Shown here one piece after another: positions 1,212 to 22,154 of a stretch of DNA of 34,066 nucleotides (the stretch's first letter is position 1; each line of letters begins with the position of its first letter). The position numbers were made by a program, and so were the translations under genes. Under the pieces are notes generated by a model. It ran no database searches. It was not told where the DNA came from and saw only the letters and a program-made list of their open reading frames with translations. The DNA is from a virus (lineage: Duplodnaviria; Heunggongvirae; Uroviricota; Caudoviricetes): positions 1 through 34,066 of the IMG/VR virus record IMGVR_UViG_2541047909_000004; one strand, written 5' to 3'.

Positions 1212-1493
1212 TCACATCCAGCTACGGAGTTGATGCTCAACAGCAACCGCGTGTTCATCGAATAATGACGATATTTGCGAATCATTAATGATGCGCACAT
1301 TTACAAAATATCCGTCCTCCTTAACACATACCGGCTCGCCATCTTCAGTAAGTTCTCCGGTTTCTTTGTACACATTACCTATCACGTCAATAAGAATATC
1401 ATCCTGCATCGACTCGTCATCATAATAGCCAATGCTCTCCATAAAGGCCGAAAAGTCGGCCCTGTCTGCAAATTTGAGTGTTAAATCTTTCAT
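1212..1493 (-). CDS. Small acidic protein downstream of stf (93 aa), possible tail-fibre accessory protein
   Basis: ORF whose start overlaps the stf stop (ATGA); no recognisable motif; function is inferred from position only. Confidence 0.5.
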   Translation of the reverse strand: MKDLTLKFADRADFSAFMESIGYYDDESMQDDILIDVIGNVYKETGELTEDGEPVCVKEDGYFVNVRIINDSQISSLFDEHAVAVEHQLRSWM

Positions 1494-3844
1494 TTAATAC
1501 TCTCCCCCATTTGCGCATCAGTTAATTCTTTATGCCAGAGACGAAGATTTCTCAAATGGCCGAATAGATGACGAGTTCCCGATGTGGCTTGACCTCCAAT
1601 TCGAATAAAGGTCCGTGTTTTTACGCCCGTCCACTCCGTTTTCATAGTTTTAGTAGCCTCACCGTTAGAAACTACTCGTTTAGTACCATCAGAATAAATA
1701 TTAAAACCACCAATGAATTTTCGAACATCAGTTCGACCAGCAAACACACTAGAAACGTAAGTACTTGTCGACGCTTTATAAGTTTGCATATAAAGCTGAC
1801 CGTAATATTTCTCAGTTGTGTTAAAAGCGTATGTAATTGACTCAATAGGTGGCACACCAGAAAAATCAAAAATACGCGGTGCTACATTAGGAGGAATATC
1901 GCCCCAATTTCTATTAACCTCGACAAGACACGTAAGCGGTCTATTATAGATATTATTTTCAGTTGGGATCGTCACCATATCACTGGAGCGGGTTGCGGGT
2001 GCAGTTGTCGTAATAACAAAAGATGAAGCACATCCGCCGTTTTCAAATTGTGGTGTTGCAAGGTAAATATAATCTCCCGCTTCAGTTATACCACCTTTTT
2101 TCGGCGCATACTGAATCATTGCGCCAATTAAGGTTTCACCTTCAACAGCTTCTATAGTTGCCTCATAGAAAATCCACCCTGTAACCGGATCTTTAGTTGC
2201 AGTAGCTGCTATTCTATTGGCTGCCCCGCCAGTTTTTTCTATTATCAGAGTTCCGAAAGTTAAATAAGCATCTCCTAAAAATGTATAAACCGACCCATCG
2301 TATTTTTCAAAACGCAAACGACAACGAAGACCATCAGGAGCTTTAACCCTGCATGAAACAGTGCAATACTTATTATCGCCACTAACATCAATCCCCCGGG
2401 ATGCACTGCATGTATGCAGACTAAGTGCAGATGATTGTCCTGTCATATTATCTTTTGTTCGCATTTTGGCATATGAAAAACCAAATTCATCAACACCATT
2501 ATTAGTTTTATCGATATTGCTGGTACTCGTCCATTCAGCGGGAGTATTGGATTTAACAAAATAGTTAGTGCGCTGTCCTTCAATCAATAAACCTTCTTTT
2601 TCAAATCGTGGCTCATCAATTTTAGCAACACTAAATACGCCTGATTTATTGATATATGTGGCAGTTGATGCGCGTTTAAACTTAACAACCTTGTCGCCAG
2701 GCATCGTTATTTCATCATCACCAATAACAATTTTTTTATATGACGGCGAAAAGCCCGTAATCATATCCAGTGAATCGTTAAACGGTATCCACACATCAGG
2801 CAGTGGCTGTAAGACATATTTATACGGCTCTGCTGCCTGACTTGCATACTCTCTGGCTGCGTCTTCACTTGCTTTAGCTGCTGTCTGGCTTGCTGCCGAT
2901 GCTTTCGCCGAGTTCGCCGCTGCAGTCTCGCTTGTCTTTGCATTGGTTTCACTGGTTTTTGCTGCTTTTTGACTGTTGGCTGATGCAGTGGCAGAAGCAG
3001 CCGCCGCGCTTGCAGAACCAGCTGCAGCACTCTCGCTTTGGGCTGCTGCATCCTGACTGTTTTTCGCCGCAGTTTCGCTGGCTTTGGCATTCGTTTCGCT
3101 GGTCTTCGCTGCCGTCTGGCTGTTAGCCGCAGCAGTTGCTGATCCAGCTGCTGAAGTCGCAGAACCGGCTGCCGCGCTCTCGCTTTGGGCTGCTGCAACC
3201 TGGCTGTTTTTTGCCGCAGTTTCACTGGCTTTGGCGTTCGTTTCGCTGGTTTTCGCTGCCGTCTGGCTGGACTTTGCGTTGGTTTCGCTCGTCTTTGCGG
3301 CTGTCTCGCTATTTTTCGCGTTGGTTTCTGATTTTTTGGCTGCTGTCGCGGAGTTTGCCGATGCAGTCTTTGAGGTCGCTGCCGCCTGTGCACTATTAGC
3401 TGCATTCGTTTCTGAGGTTTTCGCCGCGTTCTTCGATGATGCCGCTGCAGTTTCGGATTTCTTTGCCGCCGCTGCGCTCTGAGAGGCGGCTTCAGCGTTG
3501 CGTGCCGCTTCTTCCACCATTTCCTCAAAACGACGCAATGCCTCCGGCATGACATCATCTTCCGTCATGGCACCGAGAAAATCATTCAGCGTCCCCGGCT
3601 TAGAATCTTCATACACGGTGATGGTCCCGGCATGTGAAGGCGGAAAACCTTCAACCAGCAGGATAACGCTGTACTGGCCATACTCAACATCCATACTGTA
3701 ACGCCCGGCTTCATCCGGATTTTCTGAGGCCACCGTGTTTACCACAACCGTGGTGCTGTTACGTTTTGCTTTCAGCTGGATTGAGCAGTTCTGTACCGGT
3801 TTTCCTGTGCCGTCTTTCAGTACACCTGAAATCTTTACTGCCAT
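1490..3844 (-). CDS. stf: Side tail fibre protein (lambda Stf-like) with long Ala/Ser/Thr-rich repeat region
   Basis: 784 aa; N-terminus MAVKISGVLKDGTGKPVQNC... matches the lambda-type Stf N-terminal domain; central K-x-S-E-T-x-A heptad-like repeats. Confidence 0.85.
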   Translation of the reverse strand: MAVKISGVLKDGTGKPVQNCSIQLKAKRNSTTVVVNTVASENPDEAGRYSMDVEYGQYSVILLVEGFPPSHAGTITVYEDSKPGTLNDFLGAMTEDDVMPEALRRFEEMVEEAARNAEAASQSAAAAKKSETAAASSKNAAKTSETNAANSAQAAATSKTASANSATAAKKSETNAKNSETAAKTSETNAKSSQTAAKTSETNAKASETAAKNSQVAAAQSESAAAGSATSAAGSATAAANSQTAAKTSETNAKASETAAKNSQDAAAQSESAAAGSASAAAASATASANSQKAAKTSETNAKTSETAAANSAKASAASQTAAKASEDAAREYASQAAEPYKYVLQPLPDVWIPFNDSLDMITGFSPSYKKIVIGDDEITMPGDKVVKFKRASTATYINKSGVFSVAKIDEPRFEKEGLLIEGQRTNYFVKSNTPAEWTSTSNIDKTNNGVDEFGFSYAKMRTKDNMTGQSSALSLHTCSASRGIDVSGDNKYCTVSCRVKAPDGLRCRLRFEKYDGSVYTFLGDAYLTFGTLIIEKTGGAANRIAATATKDPVTGWIFYEATIEAVEGETLIGAMIQYAPKKGGITEAGDYIYLATPQFENGGCASSFVITTTAPATRSSDMVTIPTENNIYNRPLTCLVEVNRNWGDIPPNVAPRIFDFSGVPPIESITYAFNTTEKYYGQLYMQTYKASTSTYVSSVFAGRTDVRKFIGGFNIYSDGTKRVVSNGEATKTMKTEWTGVKTRTFIRIGGQATSGTRHLFGHLRNLRLWHKELTDAQMGESIK
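2880..3480. repeat. Tandem repeats inside stf: ~21-bp periodic units plus a ~150-bp near-perfect duplication
   Basis: DNA block around 3025-3120 is repeated at about 3175-3270; produces spurious ORFs in several frames on both strands. Confidence 0.8.
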
Positions 3845-3854
3845 ATTCCCCCCA

Positions 3855-3882
3855 CAAAAAAGCCCACCTGAACCGGCGGGCT
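3855..3882 (-). terminator. Hairpin followed by T-run between lom and stf (minus strand)
   Basis: Minus-strand AGCCCGCCGG..GGTGGGCT stem followed by TTTTTTG. Confidence 0.5.
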
Positions 3883-3908
3883 GTCATAACACTGTGTTAC
3901 CTGGCTAA

Positions 3909-4508
3909 TCAGAATTTATAACCGACACCCACGATGAAACCGTCAGTGCGCCAGTCACCACTGCCGGAGCCTTCATAAGCAATATCAATGGCCACGGATT
4001 CGGTCGGGTTAAACTGCACGCCAGCCCCCCACGCCAGAGACGTGTTGCTGTGGCGACCGTCATCACTTCCGGTCAGCACATCGTGCGTTTTCCCCTTGTT
4101 GTCAGTTACGCGAAGGTAATCCCCGGAAAAAGTCGAAACACGGCTGTAAGCCATACCCGCCATCGCATACGCGCTGAACCATTCATTCACGCGCACAGAC
4201 GGCCCCGCCATCACGCTGAACCAGCGGTTACGCACGGAATCTTCATGCCAGCGGGTATCGCTGTAACGGGTCAGCTGGCGATTCTTGTCTCCTGCATAGC
4301 TGAATGACGTCACCAGCCCCAGCGTATCCGTAAACTCATAACGGTATTTCACGTTAATCCCGTTCAGATCATCACTGCCGGGAACGTTGGTCCGGGCATG
4401 AAGATACCCCGCGCTCAGCGTGAACTGATGTTCAGATGCCCATGCAGGCGCACCGGATACGGCCAGACAAATGGCTGCGGACAAAATGGCGGCATAAAGT
4501 TTACGCAT
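3909..4508 (-). CDS. lom: Outer membrane protein Lom (Ail/Lom family)
   Basis: 199 aa; near-identical to lambda Lom from recall (MRKLYAAILSAAICLAVSGAPAWA signal peptide, C-terminal ...FIVGVGYKF); SD GAGAGG. Confidence 0.9.
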   Translation of the reverse strand: MRKLYAAILSAAICLAVSGAPAWASEHQFTLSAGYLHARTNVPGSDDLNGINVKYRYEFTDTLGLVTSFSYAGDKNRQLTRYSDTRWHEDSVRNRWFSVMAGPSVRVNEWFSAYAMAGMAYSRVSTFSGDYLRVTDNKGKTHDVLTGSDDGRHSNTSLAWGAGVQFNPTESVAIDIAYEGSGSGDWRTDGFIVGVGYKF

Positions 4509-4530
4509 AATTACCTCTCGCTTTTCTGCA

Positions 4531-4559
4531 ATAAAAAAGGCACCATTTCTGGTGCCCTT
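4531..4559 (-). terminator. Rho-independent terminator downstream of J
   Basis: Minus-strand GGCACC/GGTGCC stem followed by TTTTTTAT. Confidence 0.6.
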
Positions 4560-4577
4560 ATATGGGTTATAACAATT

Positions 4578-7500
4578 TCAACGAATACTGATGCCGGAAG
4601 CGGCTTTTTTGGTCACAATCACCGTACAGTCGGTGATATTACCTGCCCACTGATTGCCTTTATGGAAAACCTTAAACTCCAGAGTGACGCTTCCCCTGCC
4701 ACTCGGCATATCAATAACCGCACTGTAGCTACCGGGAATGGCCCCTTTAGTTTCTCTGGATGCGATTAATACACCGTTTTTGCGAACTTCAAAACCATAA
4801 CCCGTGTATCTTGTACCTCCCGGGTTATTACCACTTCCCGGATCGCTATACGCTATTCCGTTAAAGATAATGGGCGGAATAATGATTTGACGGTCAAAGT
4901 TATGATCATCGCTGATGGTGACTGTAACCGTCCCGTTTGGTGTTTCCGTGTTACCCCACGTACCAGCCTGTTTCGGGAATGATTTGGATACAGCTTTAAC
5001 GAAGTCACCTCTGACCTGAGTCGCCTCCAGCATGCCCTTAATCGTACAGTTTTCATTTACCGTGACATTGTTGAGCGTCCCGGCGTTCGCATTCACTCTG
5101 CCACTGATATCCGCATTTTTAGCGGTCAGCTTTCCGTCTGATGTCAGGGAAAATGCCGGTGGATTTCCACCACTGGTAATGGTCGGGGCCGTCAGGCGCT
5201 TCAGGAACACGTCGTTCATAAATATCTGATTGCCCTGCGCCACAAACATCGGCGTTTCATTCCCGTTTGCCGGGTCAATAAACGCGATACGGTTAGCGGC
5301 AACCAGAAACTGGCTCAGCTTGCCTTCTTCCGTGTCCTCCATGCTGAGGCCAATACCCGCGACATAATGTTTGCCGTCTTTGGTCTGCTCAATTTTGACG
5401 CCCCACATGGCATTCCATTTATCGTTGGCGTCCTTCCACTCTTTCGAAAACTCCTCCAGTTTGCTGGCGTTATCCTCCGTCAGCTCGACTTTTTCCAGCA
5501 GCTCCTTGCCGAGATGGGATTCAGTTATCTGGCCTTTGAAAAAATCCAGGTAACCTTCCGCATCATCGCTCGCCCGACCGACAGCCTCCACGAATATCGA
5601 TTTGCCGACGGTGTTCACACTGCGAACGTAAAAATAATAATCATGGCCCGGTTTGATATTGATACTGGCGGCTATCCAGTACAGCGCCGTGCCAAGATAG
5701 CGGGCTGTGGTTTCAACCTGCCTGATATCCGCAATCCGCTTTTCCGAGAACCAGAACTCAAACTGTACAGTCGGATCATAAACCGCAAGATGCGGCGTGG
5801 CGGTTATCTGAAAATAGCCCGGCGTCAGCTCAATCCTCGACGGTGCTGCCGGTGCGGCAATCCGGAACGATACCGACGCCGGATCGCCCTGCTGCCCCCA
5901 CGCATTTACCGCCCGGACTGTCAGTCTGTAGTTCCCCAGCGCCAGTTGCGTGAAGCGGTATGTGGTTTCCGTCGTCCGGGCCGTGCTGACCAGCCGCTCA
6001 CTGCCGTCATCCGCTGTTACGGTCAGACGGAGCAGGAAGCTCACGCCCTTCACCACCTTCGGCGTGTCCCAGCGCGCCAGCACCTGATATTCCCCGCTGT
6101 CTGCGGTGACTTCGGCGGTCAGGTGCTGCACCGCTGGCGGCGTGACACCATTCACCGTGCCGCTCTGGTCGCCGTCAAAGTGCGCCCCGTTATCCACGAT
6201 GGCTTCTTTTTCCGGTACATGCTGCACGGCAGTGATGGCATACGTGCCGTCATCGTTCTCACGGATACTCACACAGCGGAACAGGCGCTGACGCAACGTC
6301 GGCAGCTTCAGCCCCCACACACTGTATTCTGCAACGCCGTCAGGAACCCGGTTCACTTTCACCTTAAGTCCGTCGGTGACGGACTGAACCTCCACGCTGA
6401 CCGGATTACCACTTCCGTCAACCAGGCTTATCAGCGTGGTACCGGAGGATGGCAGCGTGATTTCACGGTCGAGCGTCAGCGTCCGGGTCTGGCTGTTCAC
6501 CGCCAGCACGCGACCACCGGTGCTGATACCGGCATAGTCATCATCGCAGATTTCAATGACATCGCCCGGTACATGGCGAAGCCCTTCAGCACCCACGCTG
6601 AAATCCACGGTCTGCGTCTCCAGCAGTTCAGTTTTAATCAGCCACAGCCCGGCGCGGTGTGCCTGCCCCCGGCTGGTACAGCCAAAAGCATCCATCTTCG
6701 TGACGCTACGACCGTAACGGGCAATGGCCTGCGTGTCCTCCACAAGCTCTGTCGCCGTCTCCCAGCCGTTATTCGGGTCAATCCAGTTCACCTCAACGGC
6801 ATTATGGCGGTCCTTCAGGGCGCTGAAGCTGTAGCGGAACGGCGCACCATCATCCGGCATCACCACATTACTGCGGTTATAGGTCCACACCTTATCCGAC
6901 GGTCGGTCCTGCACGAACGTCAGCGTCTGCCCGTTCCATACCGGCATACAGCGCATCGCCGAGCAGAAATCACTGAGCACATCCCACGCCTTGCGCTGTG
7001 TGGTCAGGTACGCATTACAGGTGATGCGCGGCTCCGTGCCGCCAAAACCGTCCGGCACCGACTGGTCGCAGTAGTGGCCGATGACATACAGCGCCCATTT
7101 GTCCACATCCGCCGCACCAAGACGTTTCCCCATGCCGTAGCGCGGATGGGTCAGCATATCCCACAGACACCAGGCCATGTTGTTGCTGTATGCTGGCTTA
7201 AACGTTCCGTCCCAGATACCGCTGTATTGCCGCGTCTGCGGGTTATAGTTCGACGGCACCTGCAGAATACGCCCGCGCAGATGATAATTACGGCTCACCT
7301 GCTGGCTGCCGAACTGCTCCGAGTCCACCTGCACGCCGACCAGTGCCGTGTTCGGGTAGCACTGTTTCACATCGATGATTTCGGTGTATGACGACCAGAG
7401 CGTTTTGTTCTGCAGCTGGTCTGTGGTGCTGTCCGGCGTCATCCTGCGCATCCGTATATTGAACGGGCGCGGCGGCAGGTTACCCACCACCACCGAGGCC

Positions 7501-8183
7501 AGATACTGCGAGGTGGTTTTGCCCTTAATGGTGATGTCTTTTTCCGTCACCCAGCCACCATTACGCTGTATCTGAACCAGCAGGCGGACTTCCGACGGAT
7601 TCCTGTCCCCCTTTGAGGTGGTTTCCACCAGTGCCTGCACGCCGAAGGTAAAACGCAGTCGGTCAATGTTTGCCGACGTGATGGTCCGGGTGATCGGCGT
7701 GTCGTATTTCACTTCCGTACCCAGCACCGTCTCGGAGCCGGAGGATTCAAATCCCTCCGGCGGTGTCTGCTCCTGCTCACCGGCCCGGAACACCACCGTG
7801 ACGCCGGAGATGTTGGTATTCCCCTCTTCGTCACGCATGTTCTGCATGATGATGCGACGGCGGCGGTAAGCCGGGTCCGCCAGATTCTGCGGATCTTCAT
7901 CCGGCAGGCGACGCAGGGTCATCTGCGGATTCACCTCATGCTTGGGTTTGACATATCCCGGCGTAAATTCAGAGGTGGAGCCGCCACGGGAGCGGATAAC
8001 CTCACCGGAAACAATCGGCGAAACGTACAGCGCCATGTTTACCAGTCCCGGAATTTGTGAGAGATAGACTTTCTCCGTGGTGAAGGGATAGCTCTCACGG
8101 AAAAAGAGACGCAGAAACAGCGGATCAAACTTAAATTTCTGCTCATTTGCCGCCAGCAGCTGGGCGGTTGTGTACATCGACAT
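4578..8183 (-). CDS. In-frame fusion of major capsid protein E N-terminus (aa 1-120) to tail tip/host specificity protein J (lacking ~45 N-terminal aa)
   Basis: Translation starts [30 protein letters not shown]... (lambda E N-terminus) and switches at ...[10 protein letters not shown]|[19 protein letters not shown]... to lambda J sequence; junction near 7823; the displayed ORF start at 8210 is a non-ATG artefact. Confidence 0.8.
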
Positions 8184-8238
8184 AAAAAAATCCCGTAAAA
8201 AAAGCCGCACAGGCGGCCTTTAGTGATGAAGGGTAAAG

Positions 8239-8571
8239 TTAAACGATGCTGATTGCCGTTCCGGCAAACGCGGTCCGTTTTTTCGTCTCGTCGCTGGCAG
8301 CCTCCGGCCAGAGCACATCCTCATAACGGAACGTGCCGGACTTGTAGAACGTCAGCGTGGTGCTGGTCTGGTCAGCTGCAACAGCCAGAATGCCAACGGC
8401 AGCACCGTCGGTGGTGCCATCCCACGCAACCAGCTTACGGGTGGCGGTGTCAAGCATCAGCGGAGTCATTGCAGGCGCTTTCGCACTCAATCCGCCGGGC
8501 GCGGTTGCGGTATGAGCCGGGTCACTGTTGCCCAGCGGCTGGTAATGGGTAAAGGTTTCTTTGCTCGTCAT
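8239..8571 (-). CDS. D: Head decoration protein D
   Basis: 110 aa from the second ATG ([12 protein letters not shown]...AISIV); SD AAGGG; matches lambda gpD by recall. Confidence 0.9.
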
Positions 8572-8580
8572 AAACATCCC

Positions 8581-8976
8581 TTACACTGGTGTGTTCAGCA
8601 AATCGTTAACGGCATCAGATGCCGGGTTACCTGCAGCCAGTGGTGCCGGTGCACCCTGCATCAGACGATCCAGCGCAGTGTCACTGCGCGCCTGTGCACT
8701 CTGTGGTGCTGCGGCCAGAATGCGGCGGGCCGTTTCCACGGTCATTCCGGGGGTTTCTGCCAGCACGCGCGCCTGTTCTTCGCGTCCGTGAGCCTCCTCA
8801 CAGTTGAGGATCCCCATAATGCGGCTGTTTTCTGCCGCAACCGCTGCGGTGATCTGCGCGTTCACGTCCGGCTGCGCCGCGCTGGCGTTTTCGCCCTCCG
8901 TCGCTGGCACCACGTCAGTAACGTCAGCCTGCGAAGCAGTGGCTGAAACAGTTGTTGATTGAGTCTCTTTGGTCAT
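8581..8976 (-). CDS. Nu3: Scaffolding protein Nu3 (in-frame internal start within C)
   Basis: ATG at 8976 with SD CAGGAGG; MTKETQSTTVSATASQ... 131 aa, same frame and stop as C. Confidence 0.75.
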   Translation of the reverse strand: MTKETQSTTVSATASQADVTDVVPATEGENASAAQPDVNAQITAAVAAENSRIMGILNCEEAHGREEQARVLAETPGMTVETARRILAAAPQSAQARSDTALDRLMQGAPAPLAAGNPASDAVNDLLNTPV

Positions 8977-9900
8977 TCGCCCTCCTGAGAGACGGGATTT
9001 ACGTGCATCCAGTGCATCACGCATGACGGTGATCGCATCGGTGCTGTTAACAAGTTCATCAGCCAGTCCGGCATCAATGGCCTCCTGACCGCTGTACACT
9101 GCAGCCTCGGTATCCAGCACAGCCTGCACGGACAGGCCGGTATATGCCGACACCTTCTGCGCAAACATCTGGCGGGTTGCATCCATCCGGGACTGCAGTG
9201 TCTCCCGGACGTCATCCGGAAGATGGCTGTAGGGGTTGCCATCCACCTTATGGCTGCCGCTGTAAATCAGCGTGATTTCCACGCCCTGTTTCTCCAGCGC
9301 AGCACCGTAATTACTGTGAGCCATCATGACGCCGATGGAGCCTGTCCGGGCGGTCTGCGTGACCAGACGCCGGGAGGCGGCGCTGGCAAGCAGCTGACCT
9401 GCACTGCAGTTCATGTCGTTGGCCAGCGCCCATACCGGTTTTATGTCACGCACACGGGCGATGATGTCAGCGCAGTCAAATGTCCCTGCCACCATTCCGC
9501 CGGGCGTGTCCATATCGAGCAGAATGCCGTCCACCATCGGGTCACTGGCAGCCTGTTGCAGACGGGCGATAATGCCGTTGTAACCGGTCATCCCCGAATA
9601 AGGCTGCAGCGCCCGCGTCCGGCTGACCAGCGTACCGGACACCGGCAGCACGGCGATGCCGTTCATGACCTGATAACTGCGGGCCTGTCGTGGTCCGTCA
9701 CCATCACCGACTAACGCCAGCGTCGCGGGTGCCTCTCCGGCAGTCAGGCTGTCGCCGGACACCGCATCCGTCAGGCGGCTGATCCCAAGCTGGCCTGCAA
9801 GCGCACAAAAGAAAACCCGCGCATAAGCGGGTTCAAGCATCAGCGGCTCATTAAAGGCCATGCTGGCAATATGCGGGAGATTACGCAGCTCTGCTGTCAC
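8581..9900 (-). CDS. C: Head protease / minor capsid protein C (S49 peptidase family), GTG start
   Basis: VTAELRNLPHIASMAFNEPLMLEPAYARVFF... matches lambda gpC; GTG at 9900 preceded by AGGAGGAGA. Confidence 0.85.
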   Translation of the reverse strand: MTAELRNLPHIASMAFNEPLMLEPAYARVFFCALAGQLGISRLTDAVSGDSLTAGEAPATLALVGDGDGPRQARSYQVMNGIAVLPVSGTLVSRTRALQPYSGMTGYNGIIARLQQAASDPMVDGILLDMDTPGGMVAGTFDCADIIARVRDIKPVWALANDMNCSAGQLLASAASRRLVTQTARTGSIGVMMAHSNYGAALEKQGVEITLIYSGSHKVDGNPYSHLPDDVRETLQSRMDATRQMFAQKVSAYTGLSVQAVLDTEAAVYSGQEAIDAGLADELVNSTDAITVMRDALDARKSRLSGGRMTKETQSTTVSATASQADVTDVVPATEGENASAAQPDVNAQITAAVAAENSRIMGILNCEEAHGREEQARVLAETPGMTVETARRILAAAPQSAQARSDTALDRLMQGAPAPLAAGNPASDAVNDLLNTPV

Positions 9901-10663
9901 TCTTCTCCTCCTCTGTTGATTGTCGCAGCCCGGATTCAAATGCCGCAGCCGCCCAGGCGGGCGGTTTAAGACCAGCCGCACGGCGCTCCATCGTTTCACG
10001 GACCTGCTGGGCAAAAATTTCCTGATAGTCGTCACCGCGTTTCGCGCACTCTTTCTCGTAGGTGCTCAGTCCGGCTTCTATCAGCATCACCGCTTCCTGA
10101 ACTTCTTTCAGACCATCGATGGCCATACGACCGGAGCCTATCCAGTCGCAGTTCCCCCAGGCACTGCGGGCTTCCTGAAAGCTGAAGCGCGCTTTTGAAG
10201 GTAACGTCACCACGCGGCGAACGATGGCCTCTTCCAGCCAGCACAGAAACATCTGGCTCGCCTGACGGGATGCGACGAATTTTCGCCGTCCCATAAAGTG
10301 CGCCCACGACTCGTTCGCGCTGGCCCGTGCCGTGGAGTAGCTCATCTGGGCGTAATTCCGGGAAAGCTGCTCATACGAGACACCCAGCCCGGCAGCGATA
10401 TACCGCAGCAGTGACTGCTCAAACACGGAGTAGCCGTTATCCGTGTCCTGAGCCGTCTGCAGGTTCAGTGAGTCACCCGGCATCAGGTGCGGCACTTTTG
10501 CGCCTCCCAGCCGGACCGGTGCGGCGGAGTAATACGCGGCAATTTCACCAATCCAGCCGGTCAGCCTTTCCCGCTGCTCCTGACTGTTCGCGCCCAGAAT
10601 AAAATCCATCGCTGACTGCGTATCCAGCTCACTTTCAATGGTGGCGGCATACATCGCCTTTAT
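9881..10663 (-). pseudogene. B: Portal protein B, C-terminal fragment (about residues 273-533)
   Basis: ...KAMYAATIESELDTQSAMDFILGANSQEQRERLTGW...EEEKSDSRAA matches the lambda portal C-terminus; homology stops at about 10663 where unrelated AT-rich DNA begins. Confidence 0.85.
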
Positions 10664-11098
10664 GAAAAGACAGGAAAAAATAAAATTTAAAAACAGTACA
10701 TTACGAATGCTCAGACCTATCGTTTAAAGGAGTCGCAATACACACTGCAATACACGATTATTTATAAGATGAGCGGCATCCGTCATAAAGCTGGTGGATG
10801 CTTTTTCTATGCATATATGCACAGTTTTAGTGGGCGTTAATGTCGATATAGGGATCCCCATATCGAGATTGGATACCTGGCTTTTTTCCGGTTAACCTTT
10901 AATCAGGCTGGTGGGCTTTACCTGTTTTGTATGAGTGGTCATCATGACCATGTCATAACAAAAACCCCATATTCGTGGTTTTTCTGTGTCGGGCTATTCT
11001 GTCGTTGCTGTGCTGATTTGACTGGTGGGCTGAATCATCATTACGGCGATGCAGCTATGTAGACGTTCCGGCCTCCTCAAATTGAGGATTGTGGAAGA

Positions 11099-11225
11099 AT
11101 CAATGGGTTAGTCTTACTTTCCCGACATCCCCCAATGGGGGTTTTCGAAACAATCAATAGCTTAGGCTTACTTCCCCGATTTCCTGCATTGCAGGTTTTC
11201 GAAATAATCAATGGGTTAGGCCATC
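11099..11225. repeat. Two and a third tandem 54-bp units, each containing a 5-bp-stem hairpin followed by GTTTTCGAAA
   Basis: Unit 1 (11099-11152) and unit 2 (11153-11206) align over their length, with stems CCCCCAATGGGGG versus CCTGCATTGCAGG; partial third unit at 11207. Confidence 0.7.
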
Positions 11226-11469
11226 GTGCAATTTTGCACTTTGCCAGCCAGCGCAATGTCGCGTTATCAGTCCTCAGATGTGAGGGATGTAGCCAGCTTT
11301 TCCCCCAGTGGGGGATATCCAGCACCGACGGCTTAACTGTGCGTGCCAGCACAAGGTAGCCTTGAACTACTTACTGCATCCCATCTTACAGGCCGTGCCT
11401 TCCTGCTTAACTTTTTGCAATGCAACAAGTCAGCCAGCGCAATTTTGCGTTATCGGGAATATCAGCAAG

Positions 11470-11751
11470 TTACCGCCGCAATCGTTCCGGCTTCTTCCAC
11501 TGGTAAGTATTTTTCGCGCTCTCCCTCCGTTGTTGAGAACGGCGACGATATGCCAGCAACTCAAGGACTCTTGTTCGTATGTTGCGCATATCCACGCCGT
11601 TAAGCTCAATACCGTCACGGCGCATCACCTCAGCCACTACACGCACATAATTATCTGCGGTCACGCTGTCCGGCTGCGTGGCCTGTTCGTCATGCTGCTT
11701 GCTGATTCCACAAGCACGGCGGATTAATCGCAGTATTTCGGATTCAGTCAT
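11470..11751 (-). CDS. Small basic protein (93 aa) downstream of terS-like gene, function unknown
   Basis: ORF starting 11 nt after the terS-like stop; no clear SD; Arg-rich C-terminus. Confidence 0.45.
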   Translation of the reverse strand: MTESEILRLIRRACGISKQHDEQATQPDSVTADNYVRVVAEVMRRDGIELNGVDMRNIRTRVLELLAYRRRSQQRRESAKNTYQWKKPERLRR

Positions 11752-11762
11752 AGCGTACTACG

Positions 11763-12305
11763 TTACTTATCTTTATTCGGCTGCAACTTATCCGGTACGT
11801 TTCCGGCAGTTTCCATCAGATAATCGGACAGCATCAGCGGTATGTTTTCGTCAAGTTTTGCGCATGCGTTACAGGCTCTGATAACTTCTTTTTTCAGTCC
11901 ATCCAGCATAGACGGCTTCATGTCGGGAAACTTCCTTGTCATGGCAAGCGGCAGGCTGTCCATGATTGAAGAAATCTGACTCGCCAATTTTGAAAGCACG
12001 TATATACAAAACGCTGTATCAATAACGTCGCCGCGTTCGCGCTCGTTTTTAAGCTCCTGCGCCTCTGCCTGTGCTGTCAGCAATCTGATCCTGACTCGTA
12101 GGAGTTCATCATCATCAATCTCGCCTTTGTCGTCTGTAATCTGGTTAATTGCATTGCTAACCCGATTGTCTATTACGCTGGCAACATCATAAAACGCCTC
12201 GCGGCCTTTACGTTCAACGGGAGTCACTCCCCACTTGTCGAACGCTGTCGCACTTACACGGCAGCTTTGCGCCATGTTTTTTTTGTTCATCAGGTGCGAT
12301 TTCAT
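11763..12305 (-). CDS. Terminase small subunit homologue (Nu1-like), second copy in the window
   Basis: ...LLTAQAEAQELKNERERGDVIDTAFCIYVLSKLASQISSIMDSLPLAMTRKFPDM... parallels Nu1 ...LTRAQADAQELKNARDSAEVVETAFCTFVLSRIAGEIASILDGIPLSVQRRFPEL...; start uncertain (ATG at 12305, 12290 or 12275). Confidence 0.75.
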   Translation of the reverse strand: MKSHLMNKKNMAQSCRVSATAFDKWGVTPVERKGREAFYDVASVIDNRVSNAINQITDDKGEIDDDELLRVRIRLLTAQAEAQELKNERERGDVIDTAFCIYVLSKLASQISSIMDSLPLAMTRKFPDMKPSMLDGLKKEVIRACNACAKLDENIPLMLSDYLMETAGNVPDKLQPNKDK

Positions 12306-12438
12306 CAATATCCCCACTTAAGTAATGTTTCAGGTTGGTGTATTGGCTTTATCTTTTCCTTTTTATTCATAGAGATAGAGCGAGCAACAAAACCACCACC
12401 AGCACCCGAAAAAGGCTCATAAATAGCGAAAACCCGCG

Positions 12439-12450
12439 AGGTCGCCGCCC
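12439..12450. other. Second cosN-like site (AGGTCGCCGCCC) within a ~65-bp block near-identical to the prophage cos
   Basis: 12418-12482 matches 18063-18127 except GTAGCCTACCGG versus GTAACCTGTCGG; sequence between cosN and the adjacent terS gene is unrelated between the two copies. Confidence 0.8.
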
Positions 12451-12506
12451 CGTAGCCTACCGGATCGCCGGAAAGGACCCGCCAGCCAGAACGGGCCCTA
12501 ATTTCA

Positions 12507-12890
12507 TCAACCAATCAACTTATAGCGACCATCCCGTGCATTGCGACGTACACGCTCAATCTTGAGGCATAGCGCCGCATCTGGCTTTTTTGGGACAGGT
12601 ACGCGGCAATATTCAGAAGATCGAGGAATATTGTTTATCCAGTCGATCACTTCACTTAAATACCAGGCCTTACGCCCTTCCGTAACCTGTACGCGTTCGG
12701 GGAACTCTCCGCGAGCCTCAAGGTTTAGCAATGTGCGACGGCTAAGGGTAGTAAGTTCCATCACCTGATTCATATCAACAAGGCGTTCACTTAAACGCAT
12801 TTTGTCAGCAATAGCCTTTAATTCCTCTACTGCTGGATCCGGATACATCATTTCGGCAATTGGCTTAAGGTCATTGTAATGATTCTGCAT
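12507..12890 (-). CDS. AlpA-like helix-turn-helix regulator (127 aa)
   Basis: Central motif ...LTTLSRRTLLNLEARGEFPERVQVTEGRKAWYLSEVIDWI... resembles the AlpA/excisionase-type HTH; SD AAGGGGGAT before the ATG at 12890. Confidence 0.6.
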   Translation of the reverse strand: MQNHYNDLKPIAEMMYPDPAVEELKAIADKMRLSERLVDMNQVMELTTLSRRTLLNLEARGEFPERVQVTEGRKAWYLSEVIDWINNIPRSSEYCRVPVPKKPDAALCLKIERVRRNARDGRYKLIG

Positions 12891-12901
12891 TGTATCCCCC
12901 T

Positions 12902-13243
12902 TTACACACGAGCCAGCGGCTGAACAGAAATACCTGAGCCAACAAACGCGGCAACCTTTGCCGACAGTTCTTTTACAGACTCAGGCCAGTTCAGAGCATC
13001 AACATTTAAAACACCTGTCTTATAAACCTGTGCCTGTGTTTTTTTCGCTGTGTCGATTTGTACAGCGGAAACATAAACCGCTTTACCTACGCTCGAACCA
13101 TCCCATACCACCAGTGCACCTGTTGCATCTTCCTGCATCAGTGGCGTAAATGCAGGAATTACCCCTTTATTAGCTGAAAATATCCCCAGCGTAGTCACCA
13201 GTGCTTCAGTGCCAGCCATGAGTTCAGTGTAATGAGTAGCCAT
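12902..13243 (-). CDS. Head decoration protein homologue (gpD-like, diverged)
   Basis: ...ALVVWDGSSVGKAVYVSAVQIDTAKKTQAQVYKTGVLNVDALNWPESV... parallels lambda D ...[47 protein letters not shown]...; SD AAGGGGGAG. Confidence 0.7.
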   Translation of the reverse strand: MATHYTELMAGTEALVTTLGIFSANKGVIPAFTPLMQEDATGALVVWDGSSVGKAVYVSAVQIDTAKKTQAQVYKTGVLNVDALNWPESVKELSAKVAAFVGSGISVQPLARV

Positions 13244-13252
13244 TGCTCCCCC

Positions 13253-14299
13253 TTAGCCAATGCGAACGGTAACAAAACGATTGATGCGGGCCGGTATTGG
13301 CTGTGGTGCTGAATGTGTCTGCACATATTCAATAGCCGGATCACCAGGCACAATATAGTTTTTCGGTGCAAGTTCGGCTTTAGTCAGCCCCATTCGGATT
13401 AGCTCCGGATCCTGAATACCGCCATAGGCGACAATCCCCTGAAGAGCCGTATTGCCAAGCACCATCAAATCAGGATCAAGGAAATGTTTTTCTGTTCCGT
13501 CCTCGTCGGTATAACGCCCGCTGTAAACAACAATCGCAACATCGCCCATATACCCTTTAAAACTCACCGAATCACCAAGGTCTTTAAGGGCCGTTTCCAG
13601 TTCGGAATTAGAACCACGACGGGTATCCAAAGCCTCTTTTATCGCTCTGAATGAACGGTATTTCTTCCATACATTACCACCCATAATGATGATATTAGTG
13701 ACGCCCTCACTAAATTCTGCGTAGCTCTCAATATCATCATTTGGATCAAAAGTTTCTTTATCCTTACCTGACCACTCAGTACCGCCAGACTGAGTGATGA
13801 TATTTTGTGGTTTTATATTCCAGTCCAGCTCATAACGTTCAATACCATCGCCCTCAATGATATTTTTCCCCGTTGTGATTGCCTGAACAGCAAGCCATTC
13901 AATACGTGCACGAATAGCTTTAGCCTGATTTACAATCGCCTGTTTAACTTTAATATTACGCGCCCCAAAAGCATTGTATTGCTCAGGTGACACACCAGCA
14001 GGGCGCACAGCTAACTTATTTGGATCAATGCTGCTTTTCGGCTTCATATAACCTGGACGAATTGTTTTTGATTCGTATCCCTCATCTCGTGAAACTTTAC
14101 TGCCCACCATAGGAGAGCAAAACGCCGCGATCGGGATATTTGGATCGTCGATCGTATCAAGAATAATGTCTCTCGATTCAAACATTACCGAGCGAGTGAA
14201 AAACAAACTGGTAAACAACGCATTTAATTTTTTTTGCACATCTTCAGCATTAGCCACCTGCACAAGCTGTGTAGGCGAATATAAATCAACCATACTCAT
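13253..14299 (-). CDS. Major capsid protein homologue (gpE-like, diverged)
   Basis: MSMVDLYSPTQL... start aligns with lambda [11 protein letters not shown]; shared motifs NIITQSGGTEWS, LDTRRGSNSELETA, GDVAIVVYSG; the upstream extension of the ORF to 14380 is probably not translated. Confidence 0.75.
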   Translation of the reverse strand: MSMVDLYSPTQLVQVANAEDVQKKLNALFTSLFFTRSVMFESRDIILDTIDDPNIPIAAFCSPMVGSKVSRDEGYESKTIRPGYMKPKSSIDPNKLAVRPAGVSPEQYNAFGARNIKVKQAIVNQAKAIRARIEWLAVQAITTGKNIIEGDGIERYELDWNIKPQNIITQSGGTEWSGKDKETFDPNDDIESYAEFSEGVTNIIIMGGNVWKKYRSFRAIKEALDTRRGSNSELETALKDLGDSVSFKGYMGDVAIVVYSGRYTDEDGTEKHFLDPDLMVLGNTALQGIVAYGGIQDPELIRMGLTKAELAPKNYIVPGDPAIEYVQTHSAPQPIPARINRFVTVRIG

Positions 14300-14510
14300 C
14301 CTCTTTACATTCATTACAAATAATTGTGAATATATTCTATTACCGATGTCTGCTATGCGAATACATGCAATCAAGTGCAATGTTGTATAAAATATGCCGT
14401 AACAACTTCAGTGCTGATAATTCGTGTTAATGTATTTACTTCCTTTGGTCGGGATTTATGTAGCATGCCGGAAAATCTATTTTTTTCCGGCATCTTTTTG
14501 TTTGCAGAAT

Positions 14511-14787
14511 TTAAAACGGTATATTATCGCCGTACGGATCATCATTCCCCGACTGTTGTTTTGCCCTGTTCAGTGCGTCAGTGGCCTGCCCCTGCTGGCC
14601 TTTTTTGCCGCCCGGTCGCGCCGTTCGCGCACTGATTACGCTGTCTGCGATAACCTGCCAGCCCCGCCGCGTTTCGCCGTTCTGGCCTGTCCACTGGCTT
14701 ACCTGCATGTTACCCGCCACGCTCACCAGTTCGCCTTTGTGGTGTTTTGCCAGTGCGTCGGCCTGTCTGCCAAACGCCAGGACGGAT
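14511..14787 (-). pseudogene. ssb: Single-stranded DNA-binding protein (SSB) C-terminal fragment
   Basis: ...GELVSVAGNMQVSQWTGQNGETRRGWQVIADSV...DDPYGDNIPF with the SSB-type acidic tail; N-terminal OB-fold half missing, cut at the junction with B. Confidence 0.65.
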
Positions 14788-17360
<2,573 letters not shown>

Positions 17361-17386
<26 letters not shown>

Positions 17387-17906
17387 TCAGCAACCCCGGT
17401 ATCAGTTCATCCAGCGCGGCTGCTTTGTTCATGGCTTTGATGATATCCCGTTTCAGGAAATCAACATGTCGGTTTTCCAGTTCCGGAAAACGCCGCTGCA
17501 CCGACAGGGGGATCCCGTCGAGAATACTGGCAATTTCACCTGCGATCCGCGACAGCACGAAAGTACAGAATGCGGTTTCCACCACTTCAGCGGAGTCTCT
17601 GGCATTCTTCAGTTCCTGTGCGTCGGCCTGCGCACGCGTAAGTCGATGGCGTTCGTACTCAATAGTTCCTGGCTGGAGATCTGCCTCGCTGGCCTGCCGC
17701 AGTTCTTCAACCTCCCGGCGCAGCTTTTCGTTCTCAATTTCAGCATCCCTTTCGGCATACCATTTTATGACGGCGGCAGAGTCATAAAGCACCTCATTAC
17801 CCTTGCCACCGCCTCGCAGAACGGGCATTCCCTGTTCCTGCCAGTTCTGAATGGTACGGATACTCGCACCGAAAATGTCAGCCAGCTGCTTTTTGTTGAC
17901 TTCCAT
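17361..17906 (-). CDS. Nu1: Terminase small subunit Nu1
   Basis: 181 aa, MEVNKKQLADIFGASIRTIQNWQEQGMPVLRGGGKGNEVLYD... as in lambda. Confidence 0.9.
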
Positions 17907-18083
17907 TGTTCATTCCACGGACAAAAACAGAGAAAGGAAACGACAGAGGCCAAAAAGCTCGCTTTCAGCACCTGTCGTTTCCTTTCTTTTCAGAGGGTAT
18001 TTTAAATAAAAACATTAAGTTATGACGAAGAAGAACGGATACGCCTTAAACCGGAAATTTTTCATAAATAGCGAAAACCCGCG

Positions 18084-18095
18084 AGGTCGCCGCCC
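18084..18095. other. cosN cohesive-end site of the prophage (within lambda-like cos)
   Basis: AGGTCGCCGCCC (reverse complement of GGGCGGCGACCT) flanked by lambda left-end and right-end sequence, about 180 bp upstream of Nu1. Confidence 0.85.
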
Positions 18096-18294
18096 CGTAA
18101 CCTGTCGGATCGCCGGAAAGGACCCGCAAAATGATAATAATTATCATCTACATGTCACAACGTGCATCTACGCCATCAAACCACGTCAAATAATCAATTA
18201 TGACGCAGGTATCGTATTAATTGATCTGCATCAACTTAACGTAAAAACAACTTCAGACAATACAAATCAGCGACACTGAATACGGGGCAACCTC

Positions 18295-18489
18295 ATGTCA
18301 ACGAAGAACAGAACCCGCAGAACAACAACCCGCAACATCCGCTTTCCTAACCAAATGATTGAACAAATTAACATCGCTCTTGAGCAAAAAGGGTCTGGGA
18401 ATTTCTCAGCCTGGGTCATTGAAGCCTGCCGTCGGAGACTAACGTCAGAAAAGAGAGCATATACATCAATCCAAAGTGATGATGGATGA
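18295..18489 (+). CDS. Small phage protein (64 aa), YlcI/DUF3950-like
   Basis: ORF between cos and bor; family assignment by recall only. Confidence 0.5.
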   Translation: MSTKNRTRRTTTRNIRFPNQMIEQINIALEQKGSGNFSAWVIEACRRRLTSEKRAYTSIQSDDG

Positions 18490-18850
18490 ACATCCCGGTT
18501 TCTTCCACCATCGCACCGGAAAAGCGACTATGAGGGTAACCCTGCGTCTGTCAGCACAGTAAAACCCGGTGTGCATCGTTTTTGATTATTCCCGCACACT
18601 CACGCAGAAGGAATTCCCCGTCGGGCTACGGTCATGGTTAATGCGGGAATACGGCGACGATACAGCGCAGCTAAAAGGGTAATGGACAGATAGAGCGGTT
18701 TATTTCATTCCACAGGATTCTGAGTGCCCCCCCCTCCTCCAATAGGCTGAGCATCCACCTATATAGTTTTAATTTTCATCAATCCATTTAACTATCGTTT
18801 AATTGTTGTCACATAGGATTCTGCCGTTTTTAACAATGCAGGATAATAAG

Positions 18851-19144
18851 ATGAAAAAAATGTTGTTTTCTGCCGCTCTGGCAATGCTTATTACAGGATG
18901 TGCTCAACAGACGTTTACTGTTGGAAACAAACCGACAGCAGTAACACCAAAGGAAACCATCACCCATCATTTCTTCGTTTCGGGAATTGGACAGGAGAAA
19001 ACTGTTGATGCAGCCAAAATTTGTGGCGGCGCAGAAAATGTTGTTAAAACAGAAACCCAGCAAACATTCGTAAATGGATTTCTCGGTTTTATTACTTTAG
19101 GCATTTATACTCCGCTGGAAGCGCGTGTGTATTGCTCACAATAA
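18851..19144 (+). CDS. bor: Bor lipoprotein (serum resistance)
   Basis: MKKMLFSAALAMLITGCAQQ... lipobox LITGC; 97 aa; opposite strand to late genes as in lambda. Confidence 0.9.
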   Translation: MKKMLFSAALAMLITGCAQQTFTVGNKPTAVTPKETITHHFFVSGIGQEKTVDAAKICGGAENVVKTETQQTFVNGFLGFITLGIYTPLEARVYCSQ

Positions 19145-19175
19145 TTGCATGAGTTGCCCATCGATATGGGCAGCT

Positions 19176-19637
19176 CTATCTGCACTGCTCATTAATATAC
19201 TTCTGGGTTCCTTCCAGTTGTTTTTGCATAGTGATCAGCCTCTCTCTGAGGGTGAAATAATCCCGTTCAGCGGTGTCTGCCAGTCGGGGGGAGGCTGCAT
19301 TATCCACGCCGGAGGCGGTGGTGGCTTCACGCACTGACTGACAGACTGCTTTGATGTGCAACCGACGACGACCAGCGGCAACATCATCACGCAGAGCATC
19401 ATTTTCAGCTTTCGCATCAGCTAACTCCTTCGTGTATTTTGCATCGAGCGCAGCAACATCACGCTGACGCATCTGCATGTCAGTAATTGCCGCGTTCGCC
19501 AGCTTCAGTTCTCTGGCATTTTTGTCGCGCTGGGCTTTGTAGGTAATGGCGTTATCACGGTAATGATTAACAGCCCATGACAGGCAGACGATGATGCAGA
19601 TAACCAGAGCGGAGATAATCGCGGTTACTCTGTTCAT
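19176..19637 (-). CDS. Rz: Spanin inner-membrane subunit Rz
   Basis: [44 protein letters not shown]... 153 aa; ATG overlaps the R stop. Confidence 0.9.
19235..19417 (-). CDS. Rz1: Spanin outer-membrane lipoprotein Rz1 (embedded in Rz, +1 frame)
   Basis: 60 aa, ...[19 protein letters not shown]...[29 protein letters not shown]. Confidence 0.85.
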
Positions 19638-20131
19638 TGCTGACCCCACAAACAGATTTCACGCTCAATCTCACGACGAGTCATGAGACCTTTCCATTGC
19701 TTACCGCCAGCATATGTCCAGCGACGTAGCTGATCACATGCGCCTTTGATATCGCCCTGGTTTATTTTGCGAAGAAGCGTCGATGTTCTGAAATTGCCAG
19801 CACCCACGTTGTAAACGAATGAGTAAAGAGCGCCGCGCATTGTTTCCGGTATATCGACTTTGATGTACGGGTTAATTTGTCTGGCGACCGTGGCAAGGTC
19901 TTTATTCAGGAGGGCTTTGCATTCTGCTTTGGTATACGTTTTACCGAGCATGATGTCTTTTCCTGTATGCCCGTGACATACAGTCCATACACCAACAATA
20001 TCTTTGTATGGTATGTAGCTGACACCTTCCAGACCATCGTTACCACTTGGGCCAGTGATTAACACTGATGCTATAGCAATTGCTCCGCCACCAATAGCAG
20101 CAGCAACGGCTTTTCGTAATGATGGAGGCAT
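19634..20131 (-). CDS. R: SAR endolysin (phage-21-type lysozyme)
   Basis: 165 aa, [44 protein letters not shown]... N-terminal signal-anchor-release domain. Confidence 0.85.
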
Positions 20132-20346
20132 TATTCACCTCTCGCAGCCTTGCGCTTATCTTCTTTAATCTTGAAATAAAGGTTTGTCAGGTACGTCAGC
20201 AGGCCAAATACCAGGCTACCCAGCACACCTATTGCTGCCCACTGTGAGGGCGTGACTTTATCGAGCAGCTGTAAAAACCAGTAACCGGCACTACCTGCTG
20301 AGGTGCCATAGGCGACACCCGTTGTTAACTTATCCATGGATTTCAT
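20131..20346 (-). CDS. S: Pinholin (S21-type), dual-start motif MKSMDK
   Basis: 71 aa with two transmembrane segments; directly upstream of the SAR endolysin. Confidence 0.85.
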
Positions 20347-20471
20347 AACCCCACCTCGCAGACAAAGCGGGTGTAAATTAAGGGGATATTACGTATCGCA
20401 ATAAAGGCAGAAACGTAACAGATTCGGAGTCAGTGAATAACTCAGGTATTGGGTTATCAGCTAATATCGAG

Positions 20472-20508
20472 ACTCAAAAAATGGAAAAACCCGCTCGACG
20501 GCGGGTTT
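20472..20508 (-). terminator. Rho-independent terminator upstream of S (candidate late tR')
   Basis: Minus-strand AAACCCGC/GCGGGTTT stem followed by TTTTCCATTTTTTGAG, about 140 bp upstream of the S start. Confidence 0.6.
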
Positions 20509-20934
20509 AAGCTGTGTGACGAAGTAACCACTCTTAACAGCATAACCAATTTTTTACGTACGTAAACTACTAAATGATATTTGTGAGAATGCCACCGAGT
20601 GTTCAAAACACCACCACAAATACATAAGAAAACTTCAACAAATAATCAGTTAATAATTTCCGATGTTATTTTTAGTTTGTTTAAATTAAGCTAAAGAATT
20701 ATAGAGCACTTATAAATAAGTGCCATTAATATAAATTAGCTAATAGATTTATTTTTGTTCAGACAAGAGCCATGAATAGGATTAGATAGAAAAGGTTCAG
20801 ATAAAAATAGAGATCTACTTCACAAATTAAATGAGAAACTAAAACTTACATCTTGAAATAATCACATTGATTAGATGAATATTTATCGCGCAGTGACATC
20901 ATTTTTTAATAATAGTTCAAAAAAAGGGCGTACA

Positions 20935-22017
20935 ATGAAAAAATTAACAGTGGCAATTTCTGCTGTAGCTGCATCAGTACTGATGGCGATGTCTGCTCAG
21001 GCAGCTGAAATTTATAATAAAGACAGTAACAAGCTGGATCTATACGGGAAAGTTAATGCCAAGCACTACTTCTCCTCTAATGATGCAGATGATGGTGATA
21101 CTACTTATGCCCGTCTTGGCTTCAAAGGTGAAACCCAAATCAACGATCAACTGACTGGTTTCGGTCAGTGGGAATATGAATTCAAAGGCAACCGTGCTGA
21201 ATCTCAAGGTTCTTCCAAAGACAAAACCCGTCTTGCATTTGCAGGCCTGAAATTTGGTGATTACGGCTCCATCGATTACGGCCGTAACTACGGTGTAGCA
21301 TACGACATCGGTGCGTGGACTGACGTTCTGCCAGAATTCGGTGGTGATACCTGGACCCAAACAGATGTGTTCATGACTGGTCGCACTACTGGTGTTGCAA
21401 CTTATCGTAACAACGACTTCTTTGGTCTGGTCGATGGCCTGAACTTTGCTGCTCAGTATCAGGGTAAAAATGACCGCACTGACGTAACTGAAGCCAATGG
21501 TGATGGTTTCGGTTTCTCCACTACTTATGAGTATGAAGGATTCGGCGTGGGTGCAACCTATGCTAAATCAGATCGCACTGACGGTCAGGTCGCCTATGGT
21601 AAGAGCAAATTCAATGCCTCCGGCAAAAATGCGGAAGTATGGGCTGCAGGCCTGAAATATGATGCGAACAATATCTATCTGGCTACCACATATTCTGAAA
21701 CTCAGAATATGACCGTTTTTGGTAATAACCATATTGCAAACAAAGCACAAAACTTTGAAGCAGTAGCACAATATCAGTTTGACTTCGGTCTGCGCCCATC
21801 TGTTGCTTACCTTCAGTCAAAAGGTAAAGACCTTGGTGTTCATGGTGACCGAGACTTAGTCAAGTATGTCGATGTCGGTGCTACTTACTACTTTAATAAA
21901 AACATGTCTACTTTTGTTGATTACAAAATCAACTTAATTGACGATAGTAAGTTTACCAAAACAGCTGGTATTGATACCGACGACATCGTCGCTGTAGGTC
22001 TGGTTTATCAGTTCTAA
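20935..22017 (+). CDS. nmpC: Outer membrane porin (OmpC/OmpF family; NmpC/Lc-like phage porin)
   Basis: 360 aa with signal peptide [38 protein letters not shown] start of mature porin and C-terminal ...VGLVYQF. Confidence 0.85.
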
Positions 22018-22027
22018 TCTGACTTAC

Positions 22028-22068
22028 GAAAAAGATATGTTGCGGGAGGCTTTGCCTCCGCAACATAT
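22028..22068 (-). terminator. Hairpin with T-run on the minus strand (terminator after Q operon)
   Basis: ATATGTTGCGGGAGGC/CCTCCGCAACATAT stem; A-run on plus equals U-run for the minus-strand transcript. Confidence 0.5.
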
Positions 22069-22154
22069 AAGTGGAGCCCTCAAGCCACTTCCTTTAGAAG
22101 CACTACCTTGCTTCTTACTATATAAACCTTCTGTTATATATTACCCTTTATTTT

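Follow-up and report, generated by a model that had tools for sequence, protein, structure and literature searches.

In this study, we analysed the origin of an open reading frame in which the beginning of a capsid gene runs directly into a tail tip gene, within a window of 34,066 nucleotides (the whole stretch of DNA under study) that corresponds to NZ_OZ547038.1 positions 2518925-2552990, reversed, of the Escherichia coli blood culture isolate AF58 from the UK. In AF58, the window is the lambdoid prophage integrated at argU, the attachment site of DLP12. Our findings support a model where the fusion, E'::'J, is very probably the scar of a deletion in a decaying lambdoid prophage, a product of ordinary prophage decay. 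Deletional decay of lambdoid prophages is a textbook phenomenon, with DLP12 as the classic case. The capsid-tail-tip fusion ORF itself is a genuine genomic feature, and the observation lies far beyond chance.

The chimeric ORF (minus strand, 4578..8183; 3606 nt, 1201 aa plus stop; gpJ in RefSeq, WP_021562712.1) runs from an ATG at window position 8183 to a stop at 4578; a GTG at 8210 would extend the mechanical ORF to 1210 aa, position 8183 being both the native E start and the start chosen by RefSeq. Its first segment (7824..8183, minus strand) comprises codons 1-120 of a lambda-type major capsid gene, together with the native start and upstream region. Fusion residues 1-120 are identical to lambda gpE 1-120 at 120 of 120 positions (tblastn, E=7.8e-79), and the same N-terminus matches residues 1-120 of the PDB chain 7vi9_A (phmmer, E=5.8e-74). 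The second segment (4578..7823, minus strand) comprises codons 57-1137, plus the stop, of a 1137-aa tip attachment protein J and carries all six J Pfam domains. Fusion residues 116-1200 align with residues 52-1131 of lambda gpJ (8iyk_J; E=0, phmmer against PDB), the identity to lambda J 54-1131 being 88% (tblastn), and the DNA of this segment is 99.8% identical to J of strain NCTC86 (NZ_CP019778.1), the best J match in a set of 5,426 complete genomes. In the Pfam profiles, positions 1-111 of the 329 of Phage_cap_E (PF03864) fall on fusion residues 5-119, and are followed by FNIII-A_GpJ, Phage-tail_3, Ig_J, Ig_J_second, Phage_Tail_Tip and Ig_GpJ_C, each above cut-off. When compared with the two lambda proteins, the chimera thus retains gpE homology in its N-terminal 120 residues and the complete J domain series in the same order; yet it has neither a full-length HK97-fold capsid (about 329 profile positions; lambda gpE has 341 aa), gpE residues 121-341 being missing, nor the native J N-terminus (residues 1-56), and it equals neither parent. 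The C-terminal receptor-binding part of 'J also departs from lambda J, DNA similarity ending at about lambda position 18471. The tail partners that are encoded together with a working J (M, L, K, I, H, V, U, Z, G/T) are missing from the window, in which lambda FI, FII, Z, U, V, G, T, H, M, L, K and I find no match at E<1e-3 (tblastn).

A preliminary description of this DNA had read the ORF starting at 8183 as the first 120 residues of a lambda-type E followed by J, an in-frame capsid-tail-tip chimera of about 1200 aa with the rest of E and FI to I gone. The gpE identity, the J alignment, the Pfam profiles, the length of the ORF and the tblastn searches with lambda proteins all bear this out. 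It had proposed to align 4578-8183 to lambda E and J, which does map the exact breakpoints, and had named as fatal to its own reading an N-terminus not derived from E, a possibility dispelled by full identity to gpE over those 120 residues. Its estimate of about 45 lost J codons has to be raised to 56, J restarting at Gly57.

We mapped the junction by aligning the window with lambda, phage 2G7b and the NCTC86 prophage; in each case the aligned segments abut with a 3-nt overlap. E sequence stops at window position 7824 and J sequence begins by 7826 at the latest, the break being ambiguous within the three bases GAG common to both parents (7824..7826, minus strand). The E side of the junction is GACGAAGAG and the J side GACAGTGAG (GACACTGAG in lambda). 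Around the break, the E side reads ATGCGTGACGAAGAG and then CTGGCC, the J side reads GTGCTGGACAGTGAG in NCTC86 and ACACTGAG in lambda, each followed by GGGAAT, and the window reads ATGCGTGACGAAGAG followed by GGGAATACC. The exact shared bases at the junction are GAG only; slightly further upstream the two sides agree again at GAC and TGC, for nine of 15 positions overall. The 7-nt microhomology CGAAG(A/G)G that had been proposed earlier thus shrinks, in the parental alignments, to the 3-nt GAG, and about 5% of random junctions would show a microhomology of at least 3 nt. On the lambda map, E is retained to 6494 and J restarts at 15673; the 9,178 bp lost in between comprise E codons 121-341, the genes from FI to I and J codons 1-56. 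Measured on NCTC86, the gap grows to 11,886 bp, since V of that prophage carries ISCro1. No foreign DNA lies at the E'|'J junction in the parental alignments. Collinear flanks, no insert and a 3-nt overlap, found alike against NCTC86, lambda and 2G7b, are the marks of an illegitimate deletion, as had been suspected from the start, and would fit with short-homology illegitimate recombination, even though a single junction proves little. Given that the junction homology is only 3 nt, we infer a RecA-independent mechanism, of the replication slippage or end-joining type.

The chromosomal setting identifies both the family of the prophage and its undeleted state. The left end of the AF58 prophage lies at tRNA-Arg (argU)/intD, beside fimZ, and the right end precedes an alpha/beta-hydrolase gene, ompT, envY, ybcH and nfrA. 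Comparison of the RefSeq annotations of AF58 and K-12 MG1655 therefore places it in the DLP12 family, with argU and intD on one side and ompT-envY-ybcH-nfrA on the other; the late gene order is likewise that of DLP12, gene names being alike (quuD, a nmpC/ompC-like porin, essD, rrrD, rzpD, bor/iss, ylcI and nohD). At the same chromosomal site, NCTC86 carries a prophage with nu1, A, W, an intact B, C, D and a full E, then FI, FII, Z, U, V::ISCro1, G, T, H, M, L, K and I, and then the 1137-aa J, lom and stf. This orthologous prophage is 99.2-100% identical to that of AF58 over the common late-region parts; on either side of the junction the AF58 flanks are collinear with it at 99.65% and 99.60% identity, and the adjoining 15.5 kb of chromosome are 99.95% identical between the two strains. 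NCTC86 thus represents the undeleted state of the E...J interval, and also of the portal gene B, which holds no satellite there. With an undeleted orthologue and flanks at about 99.6%, the fusion is therefore a simple internal deletion of a vertically shared prophage. The ISCro1 in V and the annotated frameshifts in A and H set the NCTC86 prophage apart from that of AF58. The NCTC86 prophage is itself defective, with ISCro1 (IS66 family) in V and with A and H frameshifts that are either real or sequencing errors (positions 10574-14021, 2329-4255 and 14868-17430 of locus L012).

K-12 DLP12 occupies the same argU/intD site, has the same ompT-envY-ybcH-nfrA right flank and shares the late-region order with AF58, and its late region is also cut by an internal deletion with gene fragments abutting (the aaaD'-tfaD scar). 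The K-12 scar is far larger, however, reaching from a terminase A fragment (aaaD') to tfaD with all head and tail genes gone, whereas AF58 retains nu1, A, W, B', 'B, C, D, E', 'J, lom and stf. Unlike the K-12 scar, the E'::'J scar is in frame, by chance. The early region of the AF58 prophage also differs from that of DLP12, with yfdP-T, ParA and an XRE repressor. At about 19100-22100 of the window (minus strand; positions 6234-9400 of locus L001), AF58 retains an intact lysis cassette of essD, rrrD and rzpD, together with an intact iss/bor lipoprotein gene and an intact ompC/nmpC-like porin gene, the porin gene of K-12 DLP12 being split by IS5 instead; judging from the genes present, a derepressed defective AF58 prophage could lyse its cell.

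On both sides of the fusion the late genes remain recognizable, all on the minus strand. Directly upstream of E' lies an intact D, the head decoration gene (8239..8571), preceded by an intact C, encoding an S49 head protease/scaffold (8581..9900), and by 'B, the C-terminal part of the portal gene corresponding to lambda B residues 273-533 (9881..10663), all three from annotation and tblastn. Downstream of 'J, annotation gives an intact lom, encoding an Ail/Lom outer-membrane protein (3909..4508), and stf, a side tail fibre gene with an intact ORF of 784 aa (1490..3844). Within the Ala/Ser/Thr-rich repeat region of stf (about 2700-3400), AF58 (784 aa) and NCTC86 (798 aa) are 42 nt apart, and BLAST identity between the two stf genes breaks only at window 3063-3313. 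A promoter and terminator scan of 4300-12000 yielded no more sites than shuffled sequence would; a terminator-like hairpin just past the J stop (4536..4559, minus strand), seen by the consensus scan only, is the one site that stands out, and the scan has no bearing on expression.

The portal gene itself is split. Its N-terminal and C-terminal parts are separated by a 4.1-kb block (10661..14786, minus strand; from annotation and comparison with full copies) that contains ssb' and genes for an E-like capsid protein (346 aa), a D-like decoration protein (113 aa), AlpA (127 aa) and a Nu1-like TerS (180 aa), besides a 93-aa ORF, non-coding DNA of about 800 bp and attR, with the core AAGGCGAT. Strain A0 34/86 and about 60 complete E. 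coli genomes carry a full satellite of about 10.8 kb within the B gene of a lambdoid prophage (a full copy spans positions 8298-19125 of locus L014). Co-oriented with B and bounded by a AAGGCGAT identity block, it encodes int, HTH, Bro-N, Icd-like, primase and SSB proteins followed by the E-like capsid, the D-like decoration protein, AlpA, the Nu1-like TerS and the 93-aa ORF; attL and attR of the A0 34/86 copy share AAGGCGAT, and the window keeps the attR side. Helper-embedded satellites (HE-PICIs) use B as one of four main late-gene targets (Mageeney et al. 2023, PMC10111431), and both the position of the full copies in B and their gene content match this class. The A0 34/86 copy carries the set of integrase, alpA and primase, which is incomplete in AF58, where the int-to-ssb 5' part is deleted and only the right 4.1 kb survive. 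The block thus matches, by its gene content, a truncated helper-embedded satellite, an element of a known kind.

The deletion that truncated the satellite also truncated the portal gene. B' (14779..15261, minus strand; RefSeq annotation and tblastn) consists of the N-terminal 158 codons of the gene (window 15261-14788), joined to the middle of ssb and out of frame with ssb', at a junction around 14779-14790. Relative to strain A0 34/86, this second deletion removed 7,064 bp (351 nt of B and the int-to-ssb 5' part of the satellite), has a microhomology of 2 nt (TA), and occurs only in AF58 among complete RefSeq genomes. A third scar, at about window 26331, joins a cro-like fragment without its C-terminus to an O fragment without its N-terminus, again out of frame (ORFs at 26142-26555 and 25624-25992, minus strand, from annotated coordinates). 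P is absent, and the AF58 prophage is therefore also replication-defective. The AF58 prophage thus has at least three scars; by annotated coordinates, one of these three is in frame, which is the chance expectation, and nothing suggests that the in-frame state is meaningful.

The dismantling continues in sister isolates with the identical fusion. Four of them (L006, L008, L009 and L011) have a deletion joining window 15785 to 11725, and another (L005) has one joining 18534 to 11929, both hitting the nu1-A-W-B'-satellite region. In L006, moreover, window 3808-8975, the segment C-D-E'::'J-lom, is inverted and the stf start is clipped, and in L009 the right end of the prophage now adjoins yciE/F/G-trpA. 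These changes show ongoing decay and rearrangement within one clone. Such piecemeal dismantling is the general picture for grounded and defective prophages (PMC6379469).

The distribution of the fusion is narrow. The unbiased query for the junction, the 32-mer AACATGCGTGACGAAGAGGGGAATACCAACAT, gave one match among JGI metagenomes, none among IMG/VR contigs and none in a set with one genome per species, a yield too small for population analysis; the junction is present in one of 5,426 complete RefSeq E. coli genomes (AF58 itself) and absent from all 50,697 phage records, and in the full-text literature we found no E'::'J fusion described. The exact 1201-aa protein, on the other hand, is found on 77 contigs across 81 collection blocks, among them draft assemblies from NCBI, two metagenome assemblies from ENA, and CP165171.1, a second complete genome that has indel errors in other parts of the locus. 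Carriers retrieved in this way, by exact protein identity, form a sample biased toward retention, relatives with a broken ORF being hidden from it. Over its 3,606 nt the fusion gene is 100% identical at the DNA level in all eight loci fetched (flanks at least 99.96%), and the carriers are therefore one recent clone. From such identity among all carriers examined no signal of selection can be extracted, neutrality and selection being indistinguishable because the carriers are near-identical.

Against a virtual fusion derived from NCTC86, the gene differs at 8 nt, six of them synonymous in two tight clusters and two non-synonymous; Y1129 is the common J state, and T863I is the only lineage-specific amino-acid change. 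A metagenome contig (L013; OBWP01000044.1), equivalent to window 6639-8011, has the same junction and differs at 10 of 1,373 nt, its ORF being open over the 1.4 kb that the contig covers. Seven of those ten differences fall within 85 nt (gene nt 1413-1497), mostly toward alleles present in other J genes. By their clustering, the differences in L013 and against NCTC86 look like gene conversion between resident lambdoid prophages, which in L013 would have followed the deletion; if they are indeed conversion tracts, dN/dS is meaningless here.

Why exactly an in-frame chimera should be found in this prophage invites other explanations. One would be a retained and expressed protein with a new role, either as a dominant-negative capsid/tail-tip poison of superinfecting lambdoid phages or through transcription-translation coupling into lom-stf-tfa. 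The 3.6-kb ORF is intact with the E translation start untouched, six of six J domains persist, the ORF has been kept in isolates with further prophage deletions elsewhere, and the slightly diverged metagenome copy with the same junction is still open over 1,373 nt. Yet the apparent retention is built into a retrieval by exact protein match, purifying selection is not demonstrable with zero DNA variation among carriers, a single in-frame scar out of three is what chance would give, and only one complete genome in 5,426 has the junction; furthermore, the gpE N-terminus implies that the protein has no signal peptide, and its tail partners are gone from the window. Overall, we regard a new role as quite improbable. 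Narrower still is the proposal that the chimera, made from the strong E start when the late operon fires, would act as an interference protein against lambdoid phages and satellites. Such a poison could present a gpE N-terminal arm/E-loop fragment on a trimerising J body, blocking procapsid or tail-tip assembly, and if this reading were true the clone would possess a prophage-encoded defence against superinfecting or co-resident lambdoid phages; we hold it to be very unlikely.

The remaining alternatives concern the event itself rather than its product. A site-specific recombinase, such as a gene-E-targeting HE-PICI integrase acting at a secondary site in J, might have made the deletion: gene E is the commonest integration target of HE-PICIs, whose integrases also act off target (PMC10111431), and the AF58 prophage did host an HE-PICI, albeit in gene B. 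The published E site, however, is at Phage_cap_E profile codon 80 (PMC10111431), about 30 codons from a break at residue 120 (about profile position 112). The junction contains no satellite DNA and no att-like block, GAG alone being shared, and the att core of the resident satellite in B (AAGGCGAT) is unrelated to it. An integrase origin is thus unsupported, and we give it little credence. No better placed is recombination between two resident lambdoid prophages, one supplying E' and the other 'J. AF58 does hold other lambdoid copies, with two places matching the E region and four matching J; the clustered substitutions speak for gene conversion among prophages, and the position of the right end beside trpA in L009 speaks for prophage-mediated rearrangement. 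Both flanks of the fusion nonetheless match the same NCTC86 prophage at 99.6%, the argU...ompT synteny is intact in AF58, and the junction offers no homology able to drive a homologous exchange, so that such an origin is highly improbable. Finally, an assembly artefact, the locus having collapsed and the tail genes being really present, would suit a junction seen in one complete RefSeq genome only, but is effectively refuted, since the mere 3 nt common to E and J at the break form no repeat on which an assembler could collapse, and since the exact protein and the identical junction recur in many independent assemblies across centres and methods, CP165171.1 and metagenome assemblies among them; the earlier concern about misassembly is thereby answered.

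We therefore return to simple deletional decay as the origin of E'::'J. While resident at argU, the AF58 prophage lost one contiguous block, from E codon 121 to J codon 56, probably through a homology-independent (illegitimate, microhomology-type) deletion whose ends share GAG only. The reading frames matched by chance, as they do in one case in three, with the outcome that gene callers report one 1201-aa ORF. The product lacks about two thirds of the capsid fold and the first 56 J residues, has no tail-assembly partners encoded nearby, and would thus be unable to build heads or tails; we infer that it lacks a function. It is probably best seen as a young pseudogene-like scar, one step in an ongoing deletional decay. 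Upstream of the fusion and in its orientation lie QuuD, the lysis cassette, nu1, A, W, the remnant of the satellite, 'B, C and D, and because of this arrangement of upstream late genes and QuuD the chimera could, in principle, be made on induction. With the late operon transcribed, it would probably be translated from the native E start, no role being indicated for the product.

To a specialist, the E'::'J scar is nothing surprising, the kind of event being already known, and its practical value is that of an annotation caveat and of an intermediate in a decay series. RefSeq/PGAP lists WP_021562712.1 as "phage attachment tail tip protein J", not as a pseudogene or a fusion, and in a large protein collection it falls into one cluster with intact J proteins of 1137 aa; with a gpJ label on the chimera, counts of intact J genes or of intact prophages will be slightly wrong. 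The 'J-lom-stf block might still pass host-range alleles by recombination to lambdoid phages that infect the cell, such donation being a known role of defective prophages that is discussed for DLP12 (PMC3945230). As for the family, the undeleted NCTC86, the intermediate AF58 and the K-12 DLP12 with its larger scar form a clean and datable decay series of the DLP12-site prophage, each step of which is a short-homology deletion.
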